Source: an uncultured Hyphomicrobiales bacterium (GTDB lineage: Bacteria; Bacteroidota; Ignavibacteria; Kapaibacteriales; UBA2268). From it: a DNA stretch of 64,000 bases. This document shows positions 46,444 to 63,340 of this stretch, piece by piece. Both the position numbers and the translations under genes were made by a program. The stretch lies in the NCBI GenBank assembly GCA_964634885.1, contig CAZWLN010000007.1:1008-65007 (forward strand). Reading direction: 5' to 3'. The stretch's first letter is position 1. Each line of letters opens with the position of its first letter. The notes beneath the pieces were generated by a model, which saw only the letters and a program-made list of their open reading frames with translations, was not told the DNA's origin and ran no database searches.

Positions 46444-46911
46444 TCACAATCGCATGCTTTTTCCTTTTACAGCTAAAGTCTCCAAGACAAGCCCGGCCAG
46501 TTCCGCCGGTACGATTGCCTTTTGCCGTTCTTTTTCCTCTTCTACAGATTGGCCGGCACTTTTGACAGCTTTCAATGCGTAGAGGGCAGCTCCGGGTGAA
46601 TGGTCAGCCATGTGGGCTGTAGCAACGGCATGGCCTACTGAACGTGCTACGGCAACAGCCACGGGATTGGTCGATTCGTTTGCCACAGCGATTGCTCCGA
46701 CAGCAGCTTTTCTGGCTTCTCCGACAGAGGCTCCGCCTCTTTCCCATTCCCTGCCGACCGAGAGAGCGTGGAGCAGCCTTCCGTCAATATTCCCGCCGAG
46801 GAGAGGCAGGACATGCTCAGAACATTGCACTGCCCATCCCATCAACAAACGGTGATGTGCTTTCGTGAGCAAGCCTCCCCTGTGTTCCGCCACATATCTT
46901 CTGTCGCGCAT
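46444..46911 (-). CDS. Imm5-like putative immunity protein (all-helical, HEAT-like) with no adjacent toxin gene
   Basis: 155-aa Ala/Val-rich helical protein. The segments 'WAVQCSEHVLPLL' and 'ARSVGHAVATAHMADHSPGAALYALKAV' resemble the remembered Imm5 (polymorphic-toxin immunity) conserved blocks 'WAADCAERVLPLFE' and 'AAGHAAATAHVADHA.GAA.YAxKAV'. The gene is conspicuously GC-richer (~57%) than its neighbours. The family assignment is from memory, not a search. Confidence 0.45.
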   Translation of the reverse strand: MRDRRYVAEHRGGLLTKAHHRLLMGWAVQCSEHVLPLLGGNIDGRLLHALSVGREWERGGASVGEARKAAVGAIAVANESTNPVAVAVARSVGHAVATAHMADHSPGAALYALKAVKSAGQSVEEEKERQKAIVPAELAGLVLETLAVKGKSMRL

Positions 46912-46936
46912 TCACTCCCCTGGATTTAATACATCT

Positions 46937-48133
46937 TTACAAATTTTTCTTTATTACTTCTTCCAGTTTGGCTTCAGCTTCTTCATCGTAGCCTAACTGT
47001 ACAAAGAGGATCCTGCCGTCCTTGCCGATGAGGTACATCGTGGGGTATCCTGTAACCCTGTAGAGTTTTGGAAGCTCCGGCGGGGCCATTAGAATGGTAT
47101 AAGTAACTCCTCTCTTAGAAAGGAAAGTCCCGACGTCGTCTTCTTTCTTGTCCCTTGGGTCGATGCCGATTACTTCCAGTCCCCTGTCTTTATACTTCAT
47201 GTGTAGCTTCTGCAACATAGGATAGGACTTCATGCACCAGTAGCAGGCCTTGTAGAAAAAGTCCACCAGCACGAGTTTTCCCCTGAAGTCGGACAGGCTG
47301 CGCGTTTCACCGGAGAGAGAAGGCAGGCTCCAGGCCGGCGCTACCGTATCGACAGGCAGCAAGGGTGTTTCATCCTCTTTAGAATACTCTTTCAACCTGA
47401 TGTATTTCGGTACAGAAGCCGGTTGGAATTGGGATTCGCCTTTCACCTGTTCCGGTTCGTGTTTATCCAATACATATTTCTCATATTGGTACATGGTGTC
47501 TGCAAAGGAAACAATATCAGACAGGACAGAATACTGTACCGGCAGCAGGCCTTTTTTATCAATCCATATATTGTACTCGGTTTTCAGGCTGTGAATGACA
47601 TCGGAACTGTCGTAGTCCGGTTTTTCGATTATTCTGACCCGGTAGCAGGGATTGTTTTTGATAGATTCTTCACCGGCAAGGGTAACAGAAACCTTCGGGG
47701 ATTCTGAGGGAACCGGGAAGCATTTACTGTTTTTAAATGGTGCGTATATATTCGCATATTCGAGCATCTCCTTTACCAGATCGGGGTTCTTTGCTATCGA
47801 ATATATTCTGCCGGTACTGTCCTTGGTGGTATAATTGACATAGTCTTTGCCGGAGAACAATTCAACTTTTTGGGAACCTCCGGGTACTGAAGAAGTAAGG
47901 TGGAACAGCAAAGGGTGAAGGGTATCGGCGCCATTCTTTTTAAATGTACAGCTTGAAACGTCTGTAAGGGTATCCTTACGAGTCATCGACTTCCTGTATT
48001 TTGTCATTTCATAGTAGCCGCTTTTCACTGCTTTGCATTTTTCTGCCGACTGCTTCAGTATTGCCTGGGGGTCCTGTGCAAGAACCTTCGATGACAGAAT
48101 GACAATTGCTAATGTAAATATGTAATATTTCAT
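46937..48133 (-). CDS. Secreted thiol:disulfide oxidoreductase, TlpA/ResA-like thioredoxin fold, with an N-terminal domain of unknown function
   Basis: Signal peptide 'MKYYIFTLAIVILSSKVLAQ'. The C-terminal Trx fold has 'GKLVLVDFFYKACYWCMKSYPMLQKL' (CxxC motif) and 'VTGYPTMYLIGKDGRI' (cis-Pro region). Confidence 0.7.
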   Translation of the reverse strand: MKYYIFTLAIVILSSKVLAQDPQAILKQSAEKCKAVKSGYYEMTKYRKSMTRKDTLTDVSSCTFKKNGADTLHPLLFHLTSSVPGGSQKVELFSGKDYVNYTTKDSTGRIYSIAKNPDLVKEMLEYANIYAPFKNSKCFPVPSESPKVSVTLAGEESIKNNPCYRVRIIEKPDYDSSDVIHSLKTEYNIWIDKKGLLPVQYSVLSDIVSFADTMYQYEKYVLDKHEPEQVKGESQFQPASVPKYIRLKEYSKEDETPLLPVDTVAPAWSLPSLSGETRSLSDFRGKLVLVDFFYKACYWCMKSYPMLQKLHMKYKDRGLEVIGIDPRDKKEDDVGTFLSKRGVTYTILMAPPELPKLYRVTGYPTMYLIGKDGRILFVQLGYDEEAEAKLEEVIKKNL

Positions 48134-48447
48134 GAATCCATATTCCAAATTGATGAAAAATTAATCTATTAAGCAATCCAAATATAATAAATACTTTACT
48201 ATTAAATTATAAATTATCAGTTTTGCGCCCAATCAGGTACGTCAATCCCCCAAGGCAGTTTTCTTTAATAATGAATTGACATCAATTTCTCTTCACTGCG
48301 CTTTTCTTCACTGTTCCTCCTAATTACAAGTATTATGAATACAAAGGCAGAATATTTTTTCCCTAATGATATATTAACATGTATTAAATTGCACAATTTT
48401 TTTGGAATTTAATAAATATTAGTATTCAGGAATTGTGAAAACCATAG

Positions 48448-50409
48448 ATGAATAAAGAACTTGAAAATAAAGGAGCGGATGCCGGCCAGCCGAAGTTCGG
48501 GCTGATAGGGTTGATCATTACGATGGGTATCGTTTACGGGGACATCGGCACTTCACCGCTTTATGTAATGAACGCTCTGATCGACGGCAGCCGGCTCAGC
48601 GCCGATTTCATCATCGGGGCCATATCCTGTGTGATATGGACCCTGACATTTCAAACCACGATAAAGTATGTGCTGATTACGTTGAAAGCCCACAATAAGG
48701 GGGAAGGCGGCATCCTGGCACTCTATGCGCTTCTGAGGAAGAAGAAGAAGTACCTGTTCGCATTCGCTGTCGTCGGTGGTGCGGCATTGCTTGCCGACGG
48801 GGTCATTACACCGGCAATCACCATCACTTCCGCCGTCGAAGGACTGAGGGGCATCTACCCCGACATTCCCGTCCTGCCGATAGTATTAGTGATTTTTGCA
48901 GTCTTGTTTTTCTCCCAGCAATTCGGGACTGAAAAACTCGGGAAATCATTCGGCCCGATTATGCTGGTCTGGTTTTCGACAATCGGAGTCCTGGGATTCA
49001 TGGAAATATTCGAGTTCCCCGAAGTGTTGAAGGCATTCAATCCCTATTATGTGTATGTCTTCCTTACTCGATTCCCGGAAGGATTTGTACTGCTCGGAGC
49101 AGTATTCCTGTGTACAACCGGAGCCGAAGCCCTGTACTCCGACCTGGGGCATTGCGGCTACAAGAACATCAAAGTGTCGTGGCTGTTCGTCAAAGCGACA
49201 CTCATCCTGAACTACCTGGGGCAAGGCGCCTGGGTACTGACCCATCCGGAAATGGTTACGGCAACCACCAACCCGTTTTTTTCGATAATGCCGCAATGGT
49301 TCCTTATGGCCGGCATCATCCTGGCAACACTCGCGTCCATCATCGCCAGCCAGGCGCTGATCAGCGGTACGTTCACCCTGATTTCCGAAGCCATACAACT
49401 GAACTTCTGGCCCAAACTCAAGGTGGACCATCCCACAGAACTGAAAGGACAGATGTATATACCTTTCATCAACTGGCTCCTGTTCATCGGCTGCTGCTTT
49501 GTAGAAATCTATTTCGTCGAGTCTTCGAGAATGGAAGCGGCTTACGGCCTGGCAATCACCATTACCATGCTCATGACCACAATTCTGGTAACCTTCCACC
49601 TGAGGCTGAATAAAAAAAGGAATTTACCTCTTGTTGCTTTGTTCATGACAGTTTTCCTGACGATAGAGCTGTCGTTCCTGTACGCGTGCAGCAGCAAGTT
49701 CATACACGGCGGCTGGTTCACCATCATGCTGTCCTCTTTCTTCGCCCTGATTATGTTCGTGTGGTTCAGGACGAGGGAGATAAAAAAGCGCTACCTCCAG
49801 TTCTGCGACTTTCGTGAATACTTTCCCGCCATCAAGGACCTGCAGAAAGACGAGAAGGTACCCATCTTCACTTCGAATCTGGTTTACCTTACAAAAGCAG
49901 ACCGGCCGTCGGACATCGAAAGCAAGATTATCTATTCCATCCTGAATAAGTTTCCCAAAAGAGCCGACAAATACTGGATTCTACACATCAACTACACCGA
50001 CGAACCCGAGACAATGGAGTATTTTGTTACACAATTGGTTCCGGACATCGTTTTCAGGATAGATTTTAACATTGGATTCAGGATAAGCCCCAAAGTTAAC
50101 GTCTTTTTCAGGAAAGCTGTAGGAGACCTGATCGACAGCGGAGAGATCGACATTGTCAGCAGTTTCCCGTCGCTCAGGAAACACAAGATACAGGGTGACT
50201 TCAAGTTCGTGTTGATTGACAGGATACATACGCACGATTTTGACCTGAACTTCTTTGACAAGATGATTATGAACCTCTACGAACTATTCAACAGGGCCAG
50301 CGTGCCTGAAAGCAAAGCGTTCGGCCTGGACACCAGTGTTGTAATAGACGAGAAAGTGCCTCTCCATCACAAAACAGCCATGCCTGAGAACCTGGTGCGT
50401 GTAGGTTAA
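48448..50409 (+). CDS. kup: Potassium uptake protein Kup/HAK/KT family
   Basis: Signature 'GIVYGDIGTSPLYVMNALI' near the N-terminus, about 12 TM segments, a cytoplasmic C-terminal domain, and a length of 653 aa. Confidence 0.93.
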   Translation: MNKELENKGADAGQPKFGLIGLIITMGIVYGDIGTSPLYVMNALIDGSRLSADFIIGAISCVIWTLTFQTTIKYVLITLKAHNKGEGGILALYALLRKKKKYLFAFAVVGGAALLADGVITPAITITSAVEGLRGIYPDIPVLPIVLVIFAVLFFSQQFGTEKLGKSFGPIMLVWFSTIGVLGFMEIFEFPEVLKAFNPYYVYVFLTRFPEGFVLLGAVFLCTTGAEALYSDLGHCGYKNIKVSWLFVKATLILNYLGQGAWVLTHPEMVTATTNPFFSIMPQWFLMAGIILATLASIIASQALISGTFTLISEAIQLNFWPKLKVDHPTELKGQMYIPFINWLLFIGCCFVEIYFVESSRMEAAYGLAITITMLMTTILVTFHLRLNKKRNLPLVALFMTVFLTIELSFLYACSSKFIHGGWFTIMLSSFFALIMFVWFRTREIKKRYLQFCDFREYFPAIKDLQKDEKVPIFTSNLVYLTKADRPSDIESKIIYSILNKFPKRADKYWILHINYTDEPETMEYFVTQLVPDIVFRIDFNIGFRISPKVNVFFRKAVGDLIDSGEIDIVSSFPSLRKHKIQGDFKFVLIDRIHTHDFDLNFFDKMIMNLYELFNRASVPESKAFGLDTSVVIDEKVPLHHKTAMPENLVRVG

Positions 50410-50600
50410 AGAAGATGCATTGATGACAGGTGCGATTTCAGACTGGAATTGTCCGGCCTGACGGTTTGCATTGTCCTGTTGTTCCACTCATCATCGATGT
50501 TGCTATTAAGAATGCTGCCGAAACATACGCCTGCCGTGTTCATTGTGCTACCTGTGAAACCCTGGCCGTGCTGTCGCTTCTTTTTGCCGTTTCCATGGAA
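50407..50600 (-). pseudogene. Decayed 3'-end fragment of a radical SAM/SPASM gene (paralog/duplicate of 53242-54246). It has no start codon and an internal deletion.
   Basis: Minus-strand translation 'NGKKKRQHGQGFTGSTMNTAGVCFGSILNSNIDDEWNNRTMQ' aligns to rSAM residues 'NGKDKRKSCYWLW...SSDFSFGNILHNSINDEWNNRTMQ'. The nucleotide identity is ~76% over ~58 bp, with 27 of the first 30 positions matching, against 53331-53390. Its stop overlaps the kup stop on the opposite strand. Confidence 0.5.
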
Positions 50601-50701
50601 CGGGCTGAGATTATGTGTTTACTAACAAGAAAAAGTATTTTTTATTCGAAGTCTTTTTTTTATATTAATGAAAATTATTTTGTAATTTTTACTGATTCTG
50701 T

Positions 50702-52534
50702 ATGACAAAGCGAATACTATACTTGTTTTTAATACTTCAACTATATTCCTGCGAATATCCTCTTGACGAACTGGAAAATTCCGGAGCAATTAAACCGGAT
50801 AAGCCCCCGGTAATCGAGTTAGGAAAGAATTTCACCGGCGACACGATTTATCTGTACAAGGGACTGTCCGTAAACCTCGAGTTTAAGGCCGACTCTGCTA
50901 TCGATGTATCAGGTTATACCTTAATACTCGATGACGACACCATATCTAAGAGTAATTATTCTTTCAGTCTTATTAATTATTATATTGAAAACGGTACAGG
51001 TAGCCCAAAAGGCCAACTGAGCCTGGGAATACACAAATTACAAGTCAATGTTTACTCTCATTCATCTTCAGGTTCCATAGCCGACGGAATGGGACTTGAA
51101 AGATATTTTTACACATATTTCTGGTATGTCAACATCAGGGATTTTCCTAATTTCCTTCATTTCAGGACGGATACTACTTCCAATGTCCTGAAGCTATGTT
51201 GGGATAAATATACCCCTCCCGATTTTAAAGCTTACCTGTTTAATTCGTTCTGGGAGACACAAAACAATTGGATTCAAGAATCCATATTAGATATTAATAA
51301 AGTCTGTATGGAAGATTCAGCTTATGTCGGCTACCCCACGTATTATTATTTTGACGTTAAAAGCAGTTGCGGTAACATAAGAATCGGCAGCATTACTGCC
51401 TCTTGGTCATTGCCTTCATTCAATAAAATCACTTATGAAGACCAGAAATACTATTTAAACTGGAATGACAGCAAATACCAGCACTTGATCAGCGAATACC
51501 ATATATTCACAAACTCTGGTAAGAAGACAGTTGTCAAAGATCCAAACTGCAGGAAATTCAATATTACTGACGTCGGATTCCTTACAGGCTCAAAGTATTG
51601 GGTTCTGCCTCTCTCCAGGTACGACAACAACAGAACGAATTTCTCTAAGTACCTCCGGCCTGAAAGCCTTGCGTGCAAAACAGACCTGGGCGAAAAATAC
51701 GGTTCCGGGTACAGTTACTGCGGTAAGGCTGCCAATGGTAACTTCTGTTTTAAAATCAGCGATGAAAACAAATGTGCAATATATAATCCTACCCAGGGGA
51801 AAGTAGTAAAAACATTAAATTATATATTCCAGTCTTTTTCTCCCAACGGCAGATATGGAGTTTTCTGTTCGGTTGAAAGCCAGATGTATTATATCATCTG
51901 CGTTTATGACCTGATTAATGATAATATGGTGTACAAACTGAAAACCCTTGACATTCTCGATACTAATATTTCCGTCAACTTTAAAATATCCGATAACCTC
52001 ATCGGTGTGCTAAGTTTTGGCAACAACCTTGTTGCATACGATTTCAAAGAAAAGAAAATATTAGCAAGTAAGCAATACTACAGCAAAATATGGGGTATAG
52101 CAGTATCTTCCGGAGGAAAGTATTTCTATATCGACAGCGAAAGCGAAAATGAGATCGATTGCATTCAAAACGGCAGCTTTGTTAAGAAGTATAATCTTAA
52201 CGACAAGGGATGCCTGTTCAATCCTGAATCTGAAGATGAAATTGTTTATTCGGTAGCTGACGAAAATAAATATATACTTATGAACCTTGACAACGGTAAT
52301 AAAAAGACATTGCTTACCGGAAATGGTCTCCTGGATATTGATTTCTACAATGAGCAATATGTCATTTATAGTGTCGGTTATCTTAGTGTATGGAATTTTA
52401 ATAACATAAAATTATTTGACATCAAGACATCGCTCGATTTAAGTTTTGGCCTGGTAAATACCGGATTGGCCCTGAACAACAAAATTCTTCTTCACAAGAA
52501 TGGATACTTACTTGATATGAGGAGCTTCTATTGA
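50702..52534 (+). CDS. Hypothetical lipoprotein (610 aa), AT-rich gene, no recognised domain
   Basis: Lipoprotein signal 'MTKRILYLFLILQLYSCEYP' (lipobox L-Y-S-C). The body is Asn/Tyr/Ser-rich. The stop overlaps the start of the next gene (ATGA-type coupling at 52531-52534). Confidence 0.5.
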   Translation: MTKRILYLFLILQLYSCEYPLDELENSGAIKPDKPPVIELGKNFTGDTIYLYKGLSVNLEFKADSAIDVSGYTLILDDDTISKSNYSFSLINYYIENGTGSPKGQLSLGIHKLQVNVYSHSSSGSIADGMGLERYFYTYFWYVNIRDFPNFLHFRTDTTSNVLKLCWDKYTPPDFKAYLFNSFWETQNNWIQESILDINKVCMEDSAYVGYPTYYYFDVKSSCGNIRIGSITASWSLPSFNKITYEDQKYYLNWNDSKYQHLISEYHIFTNSGKKTVVKDPNCRKFNITDVGFLTGSKYWVLPLSRYDNNRTNFSKYLRPESLACKTDLGEKYGSGYSYCGKAANGNFCFKISDENKCAIYNPTQGKVVKTLNYIFQSFSPNGRYGVFCSVESQMYYIICVYDLINDNMVYKLKTLDILDTNISVNFKISDNLIGVLSFGNNLVAYDFKEKKILASKQYYSKIWGIAVSSGGKYFYIDSESENEIDCIQNGSFVKKYNLNDKGCLFNPESEDEIVYSVADENKYILMNLDNGNKKTLLTGNGLLDIDFYNEQYVIYSVGYLSVWNFNNIKLFDIKTSLDLSFGLVNTGLALNNKILLHKNGYLLDMRSFY

Positions 52535-53190
52535 AAAAGATAATAGTAATACTTTTGATTATCAGCTGTAAGTGCTATGCCGGCAATCTTGCCTTCAGTG
52601 TCAGCAGTTCCTACGGACAGTACAGCATGTCCAAACTGAAGGTCGTTAACTCGGAGGTGATGTCTTCGCTTCCGTTCTCTACAAAATTAATTAATGATTT
52701 CCCGGGTTATTATACATTTTCCTTTGAAAGCTATTACCTTGATTCCAAGCATTTCATGTTTGGCCTGCGCTATACAAACGAGACTACCGCCTCAAGGCTC
52801 GGGACCATTGACTATTCAGGATCTTTCAGGTTCGATCAGACAATGAATTCCGGATCCATTGCTTTAATGGTATATTATCCATTTAGAAGTTATGAGGTGC
52901 AGGTACTCTTGGGATTAGACCTCGGAATAAAATTTACCGGTTATTCCTCTGAAAAAGAGTTCACTCTCGGCAATACTACAAAAAAAATAACAGAGATGAA
53001 AGACTATACAAATTTTTACTCTATGCCGGGCATCAGGATTGTCTATCCCATTAGTTCTTTCAACCTGGCCTTTAACTTTAACTATCATTTGGGAATAGAT
53101 AAAGATACGGGTGCCACAACAGTAGCGAAAGAATGGAATGGTGTCAGAATCGGCCTTTCATTTGCAGTTATTTTCGACCTTTCTGAATAA
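52531..53190 (+). CDS. Hypothetical outer-membrane beta-barrel-like protein (219 aa), AT-rich gene
   Basis: Signal peptide 'MKKIIVILLIISCKCYA'. Alternating hydrophobic/polar beta-strand pattern with Tyr/Phe/Gly-rich turns (e.g. 'YTFSFESYYLD', 'FMFGLRYTNE', 'IALMVYYPF', 'NLAFNFNYHLG'). Topology is predicted by eye only. Confidence 0.45.
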   Translation: MKKIIVILLIISCKCYAGNLAFSVSSSYGQYSMSKLKVVNSEVMSSLPFSTKLINDFPGYYTFSFESYYLDSKHFMFGLRYTNETTASRLGTIDYSGSFRFDQTMNSGSIALMVYYPFRSYEVQVLLGLDLGIKFTGYSSEKEFTLGNTTKKITEMKDYTNFYSMPGIRIVYPISSFNLAFNFNYHLGIDKDTGATTVAKEWNGVRIGLSFAVIFDLSE

Positions 53191-53241
53191 CGCTTTATAT
53201 ATTTACCGTACTGCATATAGTGTGAATCAATACTATGCATC

Positions 53242-54246
53242 CTACCACAGCTTGTAGCAGTCTAAGCAGATGCAGCCATCCAATTCCCTGACAATGGCCG
53301 GGTCTTTTTCGATGAACAGTTTCCTGATGTTTTGCATTGTCCGGTTGTTCCATTCGTCATTAATACTATTATGCAGGATATTGCCGAAGGAGAAATCGCT
53401 TGACAGGCCTGCCAGGCAGCAGGCTTTCAGGTCTCCCTGCCATGTAATGTTCGCCACGTACCACAGCCAGTAACAGGACTTCCTTTTGTCTTTTCCATTC
53501 TTTGGGACATTAACAGCCATGTCCCTGAGGTCTTTAACCAAGTGGCGGTCTGCTCCGAGATCGATAGATAATTGCCTGACCTGCTCCGCCTCGTGCTCAT
53601 TTTCATTGAATGTTACAAACTGTGTTTCAATTAACGGGTGCTTACTCTTTCTTGCCCTTTTTCTCTCAGCCAGGTATCTTGTGTTTTCGACGACTTTCTC
53701 TAAGCTGCCACCGGTACGTACCTTCCGGTACACTTCCTCTGTGGCGGCGTCGAGCCCGACGATCAGGTAATCGAGGCCCGCATCGATGAACTGTTCCGTG
53801 TCTTCTTTGGCAATGGTATTAAAGTTTGTGCTGACGGCAGTTACTATGTTGTTCCTGGAGGCATACTCCACCATTCGGAAGAAATCTCTGTTCAACAATG
53901 ACTCGCCCACACCGTCAAGCCGGACCAATATGAGGTACTCTTTCAGGTCATCGACAATCTTTTTGAAGCCTTCGTAGTCGAGGTATCCCTTTTTCTGAAG
54001 GTTGGTTTCGTTGCCTGTCAGGCAGTATGGGCACTTCAGATTGCAGACATTAGTAAGTTCTACGTGCAATATGAAAGGATGGGCCGCCATCGTGAGCTTC
54101 TTTCTACGACGCTCATACTCAGCTCTCATCGCATTCATTAACTTCTTTAAACCAATCTTTTTTTTCGTTTTGATAATCGCAGGTAAATACCTCAGGAATG
54201 TCTGTCCCAGTTCCTGCGGCCCGTAAAGCAAAGATAACAATTTCAT
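53242..54246 (-). CDS. Radical SAM protein with C-terminal SPASM-type auxiliary cluster domain (peptide/protein-modifying maturase-like)
   Basis: Radical SAM core 'PFILHVELTNVCNLKCPYCLTG' (CxxxCxxC). The C-terminal Cys cluster 'LKACCLAGLSS...GCICLDCYKLW' is SPASM-like. A ~60-aa N-terminal extension precedes the core. Confidence 0.85.
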   Translation of the reverse strand: MKLLSLLYGPQELGQTFLRYLPAIIKTKKKIGLKKLMNAMRAEYERRRKKLTMAAHPFILHVELTNVCNLKCPYCLTGNETNLQKKGYLDYEGFKKIVDDLKEYLILVRLDGVGESLLNRDFFRMVEYASRNNIVTAVSTNFNTIAKEDTEQFIDAGLDYLIVGLDAATEEVYRKVRTGGSLEKVVENTRYLAERKRARKSKHPLIETQFVTFNENEHEAEQVRQLSIDLGADRHLVKDLRDMAVNVPKNGKDKRKSCYWLWYVANITWQGDLKACCLAGLSSDFSFGNILHNSINDEWNNRTMQNIRKLFIEKDPAIVRELDGCICLDCYKLW

Positions 54247-54576: not shown

Positions 54577-54789
54577 ATGGCTGAACAGATGATATATTCA
54601 AAGATTCGCGAGTTGCCTGTCGATATGAAAAAAGAGGTCAATGATTTCGTGGATTTTCTTCTTGCAAAACGTCGGAACAATAATTCCCAGGCAAAAAAGC
54701 AAAGAATATTCGGCTATGCGAAAGGATCAATTGTAATAAAAAGCAATTTTGATGAACCACTTGAAGACTTCAAAGAGTATATGCAATGA
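54577..54789 (+). CDS. DUF2281-like small protein (putative type II antitoxin) with no cognate toxin gene
   Basis: 70 aa. 'IRELPVDMKKEVNDFVDFLLAK' followed by an acidic tail '...DEPLEDFKEYMQ' resembles the DUF2281 pattern. The family assignment is from memory. Confidence 0.4.
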   Translation: MAEQMIYSKIRELPVDMKKEVNDFVDFLLAKRRNNNSQAKKQRIFGYAKGSIVIKSNFDEPLEDFKEYMQ

Positions 54790-54813
54790 ATTTACTATTA
54801 GACACACTTTGTC

Positions 54814-55629
54814 TCACTCTACCAAAGCCAGTTTCTCAATTAATTCCGCGCAGCCGCCGTTACAGATGTATTCTGTGTGTTCGCCGAGGCTGCCGAAACT
54901 CCGTCCGGCAATTTTCCTGCATTCCAACTCATAGCCGGTAATTTTCATGAACCTGTCTAAGGTACCCTTCGCCTTCGGATTATTGTAAGGTGACTTACCG
55001 GGATTGTCTTTCATCCACGCAATTGTGTTGAGCCAAATGGCAGCAGCCAGTGCACCGCAGCCGCTGCCGCTGAGGCCGATGCCCCCGGCAAAGCCGGCAA
55101 CCATGGCTGCGTGTTCCTCGTCTGCCCCCATTTTCCGCGCCAGTTCAGAAGCACAACTCAAGGCTTGCTCCGAAGGGCAGGCAGCTTCGGCGGCCAAACC
55201 TTTTTTGGCTGCAGAGACAGCTTCCGGCGCCCATTTCTCAGCGTATTTGAAGCAGGACCTGGCTTTCAAAAAGATGAATTTCGCCATACTCAGCTTACTT
55301 GCAAAATTCGTCTCGGTTATGTCATAGCACTCACAACTGCCGAACCTTCCTGCAAACGACCCTGCAATATGTTGCGATGCAACAATGGCCCTGGCCGTAG
55401 AGTTACCGTTACTCCTGCGCCGGGCTTCGGCTCCTGCGGCGATTACGGCGCCCCAAAGCATACCGCATTGATAGCCCTGTTGCATTATCCCGCCGGCAAA
55501 AGGGTCTGCTGCTTTTTGCTCTTCATCATTCAGGGCGCCGAATTCGCGGTTGAGAAGGTAAAAGAATGTACGGGAGCAGGTCCCCTGTTCTTTGAATACT
55601 TTCTTAGTGTCGTTATTTTCATCTATCAT
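54814..55629 (-). CDS. C_GCAxxG_C_C-family putative redox-active protein
   Basis: Gly/Ala/Cys-rich 271-aa protein with 'GGIGLSGSGCGALAAAIW', 'CGMLWGAVIAAGAE', and the C-terminal Cys pair 'CNGGCAELI', as in the C_GCAxxG_C_C family. The assignment is tentative. Confidence 0.4.
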   Translation of the reverse strand: MIDENNDTKKVFKEQGTCSRTFFYLLNREFGALNDEEQKAADPFAGGIMQQGYQCGMLWGAVIAAGAEARRRSNGNSTARAIVASQHIAGSFAGRFGSCECYDITETNFASKLSMAKFIFLKARSCFKYAEKWAPEAVSAAKKGLAAEAACPSEQALSCASELARKMGADEEHAAMVAGFAGGIGLSGSGCGALAAAIWLNTIAWMKDNPGKSPYNNPKAKGTLDRFMKITGYELECRKIAGRSFGSLGEHTEYICNGGCAELIEKLALVE

Positions 55630-61064: not shown

Positions 61065-61469
61065 ATGAAACTTAAACCTGTCTCAAAATTCAATAATCAC
61101 GAGGAATATATTGCCCTTCAGTGCGAACCGGCACAAAGCATGCTGAAGCAGGTACGGGAGGCTGTTAAGGCAATCATTCCCGATGCGGAAGAAGTCATCA
61201 GCTATCAGATGCCTGCTTTTCGTCTTCGCACCATCATTGTCTGGTACGCCGCCTTTACGAACCACATCGGCTTCTACCCTACTGCTTCGGGCATTGAGGC
61301 TTTCAAAGATGAACTGGCTCCGTACAAAAGCTCTAAAGGCGCAGTACAGTTCCCCTTTGGCAAGCCCCTCCCACTCGAGCTCATCAGCCGAATCGTCCGC
61401 TTCCGGGTGGAGGAAGAACAGGGGAAAGGAAAAACCAAAAAACTAATTAATCAACCATCCAAACAATAA
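61065..61469 (+). CDS. DUF1801 (YdhG-like) domain protein. Its 3' end is rewritten by the insertion of the downstream cassette.
   Basis: 'YQMPAFRLRTIIVWYAAFTNHIGFYP' and 'KGAVQFPFGKPLPLELISRIVRFRVEE' fit DUF1801. The present C-terminus '...VEEEQGKGKTKKLINQPSKQ' reads across a direct repeat into AT-rich DNA. A second copy of the repeat, 1.77 kb downstream, would encode '...VEEELGKGKK*'. Confidence 0.7.
   Translation: MKLKPVSKFNNHEEYIALQCEPAQSMLKQVREAVKAIIPDAEEVISYQMPAFRLRTIIVWYAAFTNHIGFYPTASGIEAFKDELAPYKSSKGAVQFPFGKPLPLELISRIVRFRVEEEQGKGKTKKLINQPSKQ
61395..61436. repeat. Left copy of a ~42-bp imperfect direct repeat ('gtccgcttccgggtggaggaagaacaggggaaaggaaaaacc') flanking the AT-rich cassette
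   Basis: It matches 63204-63245 ('gtccggttccgggtggaggaagaactgggaaaaggaaagaag') at roughly 37 of 42 positions. Confidence 0.85.
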
Positions 61470-61535
61470 ACTGATTATTTCGTTAAATATATTATATTTG
61501 TTTGTTTTATTATGATAAATGTAATTGAAAGAAAT

Positions 61536-62258
61536 ATGAAATTACCAAAGAAAATCAGCAAATGTCCCATAATTGATGCGGTAATTGAAATACGATTCGA
61601 ATCAAGTATAAATTCGAATGCCATATTCGGAATAATATATAGTTGTTTACAGGCAGAGTATCCAAAAGTCGAGACACTGCCAATTCTCCAGGTTCCGGAA
61701 CCTTTACGTGAGAATGACCCGGTCTTCAAATATAAACCTCATTATAAGATTTCAGATGATCAATATACAATACAAATCGGATCCGATGTAATTGCTTTTG
61801 GATCAGTGATTCCATATCCGGGTTGGACTGAATTTAGTAGAAAGTTCCAAAGTAATTTTGATAACATATTAAAAACAGGTATTATTCATAAGGTAATCAG
61901 ATTAGGTGTAAGATATATTAATTATTTTGACAATAACATTTTCGATAATGTTATATTGGAATTTAAATCTACCGACAATATTCTGAATCTGCCAACCGGC
62001 AATACAGTCATTCGGACAGATGTACCCTGCAATTCCTATACATCTACATTGCAAATTACTAACAATGCTAAAATTGATCCCGAAAATGAAATTGTTGGTT
62101 CATTAATCGATATTGATACTTTCAAAATATATCAGGACATGTCCTTTTTGAATTCCTACAAATCTGAGATTCAGAATGCACATAATATTGAAAAAGAACT
62201 GTTTTTTAGTATTCTTAAGCAGGATTATATAAATTCATTAGAGCCCGTATATGAGTAA
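61536..62258 (+). CDS. Cassette gene A: hypothetical protein (~241 aa), AT-rich, first gene of a coupled three-gene operon. It is possibly related to the 'sporadically distributed' TIGR04255-type proteins.
   Basis: ORF in the track (start chosen at 'MKLPKK'). The N-terminus 'CPIIDAVIEIRFES' resembles the remembered TIGR04255 N-terminal motif (P-I-x-E-A-V-x-E-I-R-F); this is low-confidence and from memory. The stop overlaps the gene B start by 8 nt. Confidence 0.5.
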   Translation: MKLPKKISKCPIIDAVIEIRFESSINSNAIFGIIYSCLQAEYPKVETLPILQVPEPLRENDPVFKYKPHYKISDDQYTIQIGSDVIAFGSVIPYPGWTEFSRKFQSNFDNILKTGIIHKVIRLGVRYINYFDNNIFDNVILEFKSTDNILNLPTGNTVIRTDVPCNSYTSTLQITNNAKIDPENEIVGSLIDIDTFKIYQDMSFLNSYKSEIQNAHNIEKELFFSILKQDYINSLEPVYE

Positions 62259-62565
62259 TACTAACCTAACAAAGAATTTTTTACCTTTTATATTGATTGG
62301 GTCTTCATTAATGAACTTCCAATATGATAACGGCAGTACTATTACAGGCTCCAGCCATTCACTTACTCCATCAATTATTGCTAATTATAAGAATTTAACT
62401 ACCAGCAAATATGAAATAAATACCAATGTGATTGCCAAACAGTTAAGTAATATGGATCAAGCCAGAGTATTTTCCGATTTTATTGCGCAAATCATTACAC
62501 AATCAATTGATATTGATGAATCGGTTCAGAAAGTAATAAATGACAATTTCTGGGATTTGCTATGA
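62251..62565 (+). CDS. Cassette gene B: hypothetical small protein (104 aa)
   Basis: ORF with start and stop overlapping its neighbours (8-nt overlap with gene A, ATGA overlap with gene C). One hydrophobic stretch 'FLPFILIGSSLMNF'. No recognised motif. Confidence 0.45.
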   Translation: MSNTNLTKNFLPFILIGSSLMNFQYDNGSTITGSSHSLTPSIIANYKNLTTSKYEINTNVIAKQLSNMDQARVFSDFIAQIITQSIDIDESVQKVINDNFWDLL

Positions 62566-63188
62566 ATCTTGATGACATTAAGGACTTTTTACCAAAATAT
62601 CTCACTCCCGCTTCAACAGAAGAACTATATAAAGGACTTAATCAATTCCCGGATAATATTTCGAAAATGAATTTCTATACCTCATATTTAAAGAATGATC
62701 CTATAATCTACCAGGGCGATTGTATAAAAGATATGATTGTTGTTAATTTGCCTGCCACCCAAAAAAAAGAGGTGCCTGCAATCATTATTTCTAACACTTG
62801 CGATGCCGATCTTAACAATTCAAGGAATTATCAATCTCATTTGGTTTATTCGCCAATTATTAATCTGAATTCTTTTAAACAAACGTTATTAGTTTCTGGT
62901 CTATTGCCTGAAAAGGTTGATGAATTAATTTACAACATTAAAAAACAAAGAATTACATCAATATTTTACCTGCCTAAATATGATCCCTCATTTGATGAAT
63001 CGATAATATTTTTCGATCGAATTTATAATATTGGGAATACATATATAAATAGAAACGACTTGAATAAGATACGGATTTTCTCATTAAGTAATTATGGCCA
63101 TTATTTATTTCTAATTAAGTTTTCTATGCATTATACGCGTTTCAATGAAAAAGTCGATAGGAAGTCGTTCAATCAACAGCAATACTGA
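62562..63188 (+). CDS. Cassette gene C: hypothetical protein (208 aa)
   Basis: ORF translationally coupled to gene B (ATGA). No recognised catalytic motif. It ends 15 bp before the right direct repeat. Confidence 0.5.
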   Translation: MNLDDIKDFLPKYLTPASTEELYKGLNQFPDNISKMNFYTSYLKNDPIIYQGDCIKDMIVVNLPATQKKEVPAIIISNTCDADLNNSRNYQSHLVYSPIINLNSFKQTLLVSGLLPEKVDELIYNIKKQRITSIFYLPKYDPSFDESIIFFDRIYNIGNTYINRNDLNKIRIFSLSNYGHYLFLIKFSMHYTRFNEKVDRKSFNQQQY

Positions 63189-63203
63189 TAATTACATTTA
63201 CAG

Positions 63204-63245
63204 TCCGGTTCCGGGTGGAGGAAGAACTGGGAAAAGGAAAGAAGT
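63204..63245. repeat. Right copy of the direct repeat flanking the cassette. It carries the displaced original 3' end (encoding ...VEEELGKGKK, then a stop) of the DUF1801 gene.
   Basis: See 61395-61436. Translating through this copy gives 'R V E E E L G K G K K *'. Confidence 0.85.
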
Positions 63246-63340
63246 GACAGAAGGCTATCCAATTAGTAATATCAAAGTTCACCATTAGACAATATAACCG
63301 TATATCTTCCCGTTAAATAGTATTTTTTGTTGGAATTTTA

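Follow-up and report, generated by a model that had tools for sequence, protein, structure and literature searches.

In the 64,000-nucleotide (nt) stretch of contig CAZWLN010000007.1 analysed here (the window), which comes from assembly GCA_964634885.1 of an uncultured bacterium placed in the Bacteroidota, an AT-rich pair of genes encoding a 610-amino-acid (aa) lipoprotein and a probable small outer-membrane beta-barrel protein (together, the module) lies between kup and an intact radical SAM/SPASM gene (the resident gene). On the far side of the module, directly against kup, the 3' end of that gene recurs as a decayed homologue (the relic). Insertion of the module at the 3' end of the radical SAM/SPASM gene with duplication of that end is the best fit to these data, a reading to which we assign a probability of about 0.5. 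The locus is organised as follows, GC standing for guanine plus cytosine content.

48448 to 50409, plus strand: kup, K+ uptake transporter of 653 aa, an open reading frame (ORF) with the Pfam domains K_trans and K_trans_C on an identical gene.
50397 to 50597, minus strand: relic, a pseudogene of a radical SAM/SPASM 3' end, corresponding to residues ~250-331 of the resident gene.
50457 to 50522, minus strand: core and best-kept part of the relic (FGSILNSNIDDEWNNRTMQTVR), a direct repeat of 53323-53388.
50598 to 50701, plus strand: AT-rich leader of the module, 104 nt, GC 0.23, recognised by composition.
50702 to 52534, plus strand: 610-aa lipoprotein gene, recognised from HMMER relatives, lipobox Cys17 and an AlphaFold2 model.
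52531 to 53190, plus strand: 219-aa partner gene with a TTG start, probable small outer-membrane beta-barrel.
53191 to 53241: AT-rich spacer of 51 nt between the convergent stops of the barrel gene and the resident gene.
53242 to 54246, minus strand: intact radical SAM/SPASM gene, 334 aa, with Radical_SAM and SPASM Pfam domains.
53242 to 53499, minus strand: part of the resident gene repeated in the relic, residues ~250-334, with its core at 53323-53388.
61395 to 63248, plus strand: AT-rich three-gene insert region at the 3' end of a DUF1801 gene, used for comparison.

A repeat finder paired 50457-50522 with 53323-53388 in the same orientation over 66 nt, with 50 identical positions (76%) and a start-to-start distance of 2866 nt, and 27 of its first 30 plus-strand positions are identical. 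This is in agreement with an earlier note on this DNA, which had given ~76% identity with 27 of 30 matches at the start and had described the two segments as lying in the same orientation, ~2.8 kb apart, on either side of an AT-rich gene pair. Its claim that the minus strand at 50407-50600 is homologous to residues ~250-310 of the radical SAM/SPASM protein was borne out and reaches somewhat further, to residue ~331: in a tblastn comparison of the resident protein with all six frames of the 64-kb window the relic was the single second site (E = 5e-6), and no other radical SAM remnant was found. In blastn of the fragment against the window the pair gave E = 6e-8, and no other match fell below E = 0.01. 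The local alignment score of the repeat was 34, against a shuffle mean of 12.6 (standard deviation 2.0, maximum 22.5; z ~10), and of 1,969 random segments of the window none scored as high as the core.

On the minus strand the translation of the relic runs to ...NGKKKRQHGQGFTGSTMNTAGVCFGSILNSNIDDEWNNRTMQTVRPDNSSLKSHLSSMHLL and a stop, and the fragment reads NGKKKRQ...FGSILNSNIDDEWNNRTMQ. Similarity to the resident gene is weak but collinear on both sides of the core, both towards the gene's 5' end (NGK.., ~50523-50597; P = 0.009 against shuffles and 0.007 against random segments) and towards its 3' end, where TGCATCTTCTTTAAC--CTACACGC aligns with TGCATCTGCTTAGACTGCTACAAGC, which holds the CICLDCYK motif (P = 0.02 and 0.03); the relic therefore spans ~50397-50597. 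It has undergone a net loss of ~45 nt (~15 codons) between NGK and FG. The deleted stretch carried the CYWLW...ACC cysteine motifs, which are near-invariant in the family, and all SPASM cysteines are gone. The relic is a pseudogene. The stop of the relic ORF (50406-50408) overlaps that of kup (50407-50409) within TTAA, as the earlier note had stated, and the 3' end of kup is native Kup sequence, with homologues aligning to residue 652 of 653. The GC of the relic is host-like (0.489), its third codon positions are GC-rich, and composition falls sharply at ~50615 as the relic gives way to the module leader (GC 0.12-0.23), which is presumably the promoter region.

The relic resembles the resident gene more than it resembles other members of the family. 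Its core matches the resident gene at 50 of 66 nt and three orthologues at only 40, 35 and 41, and when the fragment is aligned with 19 members of the family, 'RTMQ' is common only to the relic and the resident gene. It aligns with the most conserved block of the radical SAM family, which includes the invariant residues F287, G288, I290, E298, W299, N300, N301 and R308. Two otherwise invariant residues are altered in the relic, by N289S and by a second change of Asn to Ser, each requiring two nucleotide changes, and these look like the result of relaxed constraint; elsewhere it is the resident gene that has departed from the family consensus, with the relic still holding to it (N for H, N for S). 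The 16 differences in the core fall at codon positions 1, 2 and 3 in numbers of 4, 4 and 8, which are too small to separate decay from selection. Host-like GC and GC-rich third positions together indicate that the relic is a relative of the resident gene with a past in this genome, and that it was not brought in by the AT-rich module.

The module stands apart from its surroundings in composition. Its GC of 0.38 compares with 0.47 in the remainder of the window. The GC at third codon positions (GC3) of its two genes is 0.43 and 0.455, against 0.49-0.69 in most genes; only vapB and the genes at 61-63 kb are lower. The lipoprotein and barrel genes overlap by 4 nt (TTGA), the TTG start of the latter lying over the stop of the former, and the pair at 50702-53190 is AT-rich and tightly coupled; the earlier note had called it translationally coupled. 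The bracketing by the relic and the abrupt drop in composition at the module leader both speak for insertion. The same holds for the conservation of the pair amid changing neighbours in 27 of 34 loci of its family, for the different surroundings of its closest homologue, and for ten other contexts of the radical SAM family that have no tandem copy, kup or module. Under this reading, the lipoprotein-barrel pair would long since have entered the locus at the radical SAM gene's 3' end and would have left two copies of that end, of which the one joined to the gene would have been kept under selection and the one stranded beside kup would have decayed, through indels, changes at residues invariant in the family and disappearance of the cysteine motifs. 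The recombinase responsible would since have gone from the insert, or would have acted in trans.

A second insert, 8 kb from the module, has the same geometry and a clearer repeat. It consists of three genes (61433-63202; 248, 104 and 208 aa) with GC3 of 0.28-0.29 at the 3' end of the DUF1801 gene, and has on either side a copy of a 38-nt direct repeat (92%) of the end of that gene (61395-61432 and 63203-63240). The right copy of the repeat reads VRFRVEEELGKGKK and a stop, apparently the displaced original end of the DUF1801 gene. No Pfam or PADLOC match was obtained for the three genes. The earlier note had likened the module to this cassette and had taken the module to be the older, and this comparison holds: the two inserts have in common that they are AT-rich, adjoin a host gene at its 3' end, are flanked by a direct repeat of that end and have no recombinase that we could find, while the repeat of the module is the more decayed and its GC3 is 0.44 against 0.29, which fits an older and a younger event of one kind. 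That both are products of a single trans-acting system which inserts cassettes at gene 3' ends in this Bacteroidota lineage is a bolder proposal, and we consider it quite improbable.

Integrase-less islands, which are cis-mobilizable elements or else decayed genomic islands at gene 3' ends, are flanked by direct repeats of the attachment (att) type. The module is like them in that direct repeats of the target 3' end flank a compositionally odd insert without a recombinase. What marks out such islands is the near-identity of their att repeats and the presence, in the same genome or a relative, of a related element with an integrase. Neither sign is available for the module, whose repeat has decayed too far for an att core to be delimited. 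By analogy, the locus may work like a decayed integrase-less island at a gene 3' end. The best-known parallel is the cryptic prophage e14 in the icd gene of E. coli, where the intact gene stands at one end of the element and a C-terminal pseudogene, icdC, at the other (PMC13626634). As in e14/icd, and also in phage 21, the insert lies at the 3' end of a protein gene that is intact at one junction, and, as in e14/icd, a homologous C-terminal fragment is found in direct orientation at the far junction, beside the original downstream neighbour. In contrast, e14 encodes an integrase and continues to excise. The insert described here has only two genes, and its repeats have drifted much further apart (76% over the best 66 nt, and indels in the remainder). 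Judged by the features that define icd/e14-type insertions, the locus has 3'-end repeats at both junctions and an intact gene with a truncated copy, but no recombinase encoded by the insert. The locus bears a commonplace mark, of a known kind, left by a genome rearrangement in the distant past.

Several observations weigh against insertion with duplication of the target. No recombinase or transposase was detected in or at the module with Pfam, NCBIfam or PADLOC models, none was seen among the annotated genes near it or among 10 larger ORFs sampled elsewhere in the window, a repeat search found no terminal inverted repeats pairing the ends of the insert, and there is no tRNA or Rfam RNA near the module. 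Nor was an empty site found: the earlier note had proposed that related genomes be examined for a radical SAM 3' end directly abutting kup, and among 185,579 species genomes scanned with Kup there were 22 loci, the closest of them 74-77% identical and none sharing a neighbour with the window, and no such relative. Identical Kup and radical SAM proteins were found only on copies of this contig. The 3' end of the resident gene is without foreign composition: GC3 in its last 258 nt is 0.674, against 0.586 in the 5' part, and as this is not foreign, an element-borne replacement end from a low-GC donor is not supported; a replacement end, had the element brought one, would have come from a similar genome. 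The age of the repeat is also awkward. The resident gene and its closest orthologue (L032, 74% identical) likewise match at 50 of 66 nt in the core, the same divergence as that of the relic, and because the resident gene is equally near to both, the split between relic and resident gene is deep. As judged from this comparison, the divergence of the relic appears similar to a between-genera distance, and the relic would be either very old or never an identical copy of the resident gene. A duplicate born at insertion would need an unusually long survival as dead DNA, and the concentration of similarity in the most conserved motif of the family also fits two genes diverging under selection. Finally, the low GC and GC3 of 50.7-53.2 kb were confirmed, in line with the AT-richness given in the earlier note. 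In the 17 other loci whose flanks exceed 3 kb the module averages 0.02 below those flanks, but it is 0.087 below them in L072, which holds its closest relative, and 0.097 below in L044, so low GC is partly a trait of the module family and is weak evidence of recent import. Of the insertion with target duplication proposed in the earlier note, it is upheld that a decayed homologue, closest to the resident gene, lies at the far junction; duplication by the insertion itself is not established.

Some of these observations point instead to a second, full-length radical SAM/SPASM paralogue that once stood in tandem by kup, and that lost its 5' three-quarters, by deletion or replacement on the arrival of the module or by a later deletion, with no duplication of a target. 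A relic of this kind would be expected to show what was observed: divergence equal to that between 74%-identical orthologues, best preservation in the most conserved motif of the family, as if most of the divergence had taken place under protein-level selection, a frame open from NGK to the stop despite the 45-nt length difference, and consensus residues at positions where the resident gene has changed. However, tandem same-family copies were found in none of 10 other family contexts, the window holds no further radical SAM remnant, the replacement of two invariant Asn residues by Ser fits neutral decay, and the insert at 61-63 kb shows that 3'-end duplication on insertion has occurred in this genome. 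We regard the tandem paralogue as possible, if on the unlikely side. It is considerably less probable that the module has long been resident here and that the relic came from an independent local partial duplication or translocation of the radical SAM 3' end. The absence of mobility genes from the module is consistent with such an origin, as is the recurrence of low GC in its closest relative, by which composition alone is no proof of import; but the gene-5' boundary of the relic coincides with the compositional boundary of the module leader, the two repeats bracket the module exactly, and the neighbours of the module differ in all 34 loci of its family. Both a 45-aa ORF (50406-50543, minus strand) and a 91-aa ORF (50430-50705, plus strand) are open at 50.4-50.7 kb, and the latter was called as a gene on a JGI contig and ends 4 nt inside the lipoprotein gene. 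That either is a live small protein is nevertheless very unlikely: the 91-aa ORF is an antisense reading of the relic, the 45-aa ORF lacks any SPASM cysteine motif, the 68-aa minus-strand reading that includes it (50406-50612) has no Pfam match, and no small ORF is conserved before the lipoprotein gene in the 34 loci. Lastly, FGNI...W is common in SPASM domains at the protein level, as would be expected if the whole similarity were a chance match or a generic SPASM motif. The nucleotide-level statistics given above (E = 6e-8, z ~10, none of 1,969 random segments), the uniqueness of the secondary match in 64 kb, the collinearity of both flanks and the greater nearness of the relic to the resident gene than to the orthologues leave this explanation with a probability close to nil, and it is effectively refuted; a short generic motif common in the genome, which the earlier note had named as the alternative, is contradicted by the blastn and tblastn checks, with no other match in the window. 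A transposon or insertion sequence was also considered as the source of the insert and rejected, as there are no inverted repeats and no transposase and the repeat measures 66 to ~250 nt rather than 2-15 nt.

The lipoprotein-barrel pair appears, from its sequence relatives, to be a self-contained, widespread, fast-evolving and previously unstudied operon family without fixed neighbours. No Pfam or NCBIfam model reaches threshold on either protein of the pair. Word-indexed searches gave only the query itself, and the resulting notion of an 'ORFan cassette' was abandoned when HMMER found relatives of the lipoprotein and tblastn on fetched loci found relatives of the barrel protein. A full HMMER search of 1.84 billion representatives gave 153 lipoprotein relatives at E<1e-3, mostly of 595-640 aa and at best 43% identical, which count as more than 150 clusters at 50% identity. 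For the metagenome scan a seven-member sub-alignment with the GTGSIADK motif was used, family-wide alignments being too diverse. It returned 34 loci, in 27 of which a barrel homologue lies directly 3' of the lipoprotein gene, often with the same 4-nt overlap; these 27 are essentially all the loci with a long enough contig. No recurrent neighbour family beyond near-duplicate contigs, and no radical SAM, kup or recombinase gene, was found in the 34 loci. The closest module homologue (L072, 43% identity) follows a peptidase S66 gene. In one variant (L041:7974-12442) the genes after the lipoprotein homologue encode first 601 aa and then 203 aa, and neither groups with the barrel family.

The N-terminus of the lipoprotein (MTKRILYLFLILQLYSC) has a signal peptide, a lipobox with Cys17 and acidic residues after the Cys, and Cys17 is invariant in an alignment of 50 family members, in which the SGTGSIAD motif and several propeller-repeat motifs are also conserved. 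Acidic residues just after the lipidated Cys are found in surface-exposed lipoproteins of Bacteroidota. An AlphaFold2 model built from the family alignment (mean predicted local distance difference test score (pLDDT) 87.6) has a helix at residues 4-16, three beta-sandwich domains and a beta-propeller; its fold matches in the PDB are generic WD40 propellers and Ig/fn3 arrays, and Pfam fn3 and beta-propeller models match some members of the family. The model thus predicts about three Ig/fn3-like domains and a C-terminal WD40-like beta-propeller. The 219-aa partner has a signal-like N-terminus and a subthreshold match to the NCBIfam model of the TDE1717 outer-membrane barrel (E = 4e-6; 26.9 bits against a 135-bit cut-off), OMP_b-brl and OMP_b-brl_2 matches were obtained for three of its 22 homologues, and a single-sequence model is all-beta but unreliable (pLDDT 35). 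It is probably a small outer-membrane beta-barrel. The description of the pair in the earlier note is therefore secure for the lipoprotein, with its lipobox and invariant Cys17, and no more than likely for the barrel. From domain content only, the module would most likely provide a surface-exposed binding lipoprotein that is held at, or exported via, its small barrel partner.

Pairs of genes for a lipoprotein and an outer-membrane barrel are familiar in Bacteroidota from SusD/SusC and BtuG/BtuB, BtuG being itself a beta-propeller lipoprotein. The module is like these systems in that a lipoprotein gene is tightly coupled to the gene of an outer-membrane barrel, which in this case is predicted. 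It differs in that the partner has only ~220-245 aa and is no TonB-dependent transporter of ~1000 aa, and in that the lipoprotein gene comes first. Membership of the module in the SusD/SusC or BtuG/BtuB systems is not supported.

The resident gene matches PF04055 (63.7 bits) and PF13186 (36.5 bits), both above cut-off, and reached no NCBIfam model or subfamily; among the defence-system models of PADLOC it shows only generic viperin-like radical-SAM similarity, and neither the module nor the insert at 61-63 kb matches any of them. Its family is rare, with ~20 relatives at an identity of at least 47% among 5.8 billion clusters, keeps the cluster motif C68-x3-C72-x2-C75 (CxxxCxxC) and has a conserved N-terminal extension of ~55 aa. 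In the loci that were read its members stand alone behind an intergenic gap of ~280-960 nt, with a different context each time, and the ten other contexts (among L001-L007, L032, L068-L071 and one contig without DNA) hold no kup, no module and no tandem copy of the same family. The closest orthologue, in L032, lies between an ABC transporter gene and a TonB-type receptor gene, and the order kup, relic, module, radical SAM gene was seen nowhere else in the loci examined. A 44-aa ORF upstream of the gene in L005-L007 was considered as a precursor peptide and dropped, no upstream peptide being conserved across four loci. L032 and L072 both come from sample SRR12113407, on contigs with GC of ~0.39-0.41; their genes are on separate contigs and are not adjacent, and the two contigs may be from one organism.

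The remaining neighbours of the locus are as follows.

Right of the resident gene, before vapB: AT-rich gap of 330 nt.
54577 to 54789, plus strand: vapB antitoxin gene (NCBIfam TA_VapB, E = 3e-26).
54814 to 55629, minus strand: C_GCAxxG_C_C gene.

No intact toxin gene accompanies vapB in the 54577-54941 region. A 51-aa ORF over the vapB stop begins MNLLLDT, like the start of a PIN domain, enters the convergent C_GCAxxG gene and has no Pfam match. The vapB stretch (GC 0.35), on the other side of the radical SAM gene, looks like another decayed AT-rich insert. Just upstream of kup, at 46444-48148, an Imm5-like immunity gene (Pfam E = 3e-36) adjoins a gene for a 403-aa TlpA/AhpC-type thiol-disulfide oxidoreductase, with no evident toxin partner beside it. 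Type IX secretion system (T9SS) sorting domains occur in other genes of the window. Relatives of the Kup protein are found in Draconibacterium, in Prolixibacteraceae and in other Bacteroidota metagenome-assembled genomes. These two observations assign the organism to the Bacteroidota. The sequence of the window is also present on metagenomic contigs (JGI 3300022666 and SRR6476076).

The history of the genome told by this locus, namely how a surface-protein operon came to lie between kup and a radical SAM gene, is routine, and for annotation it means that the 45-aa and 91-aa ORFs at 50.4-50.7 kb are artefacts of a pseudogene. If a single system did produce both inserts, the context-free spread of the lipoprotein-barrel pair over 34 loci would reflect mobility as a unit, and the two inserts would point to a route of cassette insertion to gene ends without a resident integrase, by a mechanism not yet described. 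The most reusable result is the unannotated paired family itself, a lipoprotein of ~610 aa with a barrel-like protein of ~230 aa, which might serve the Bacteroidota as an adhesin or a receptor, or be a target of phages.

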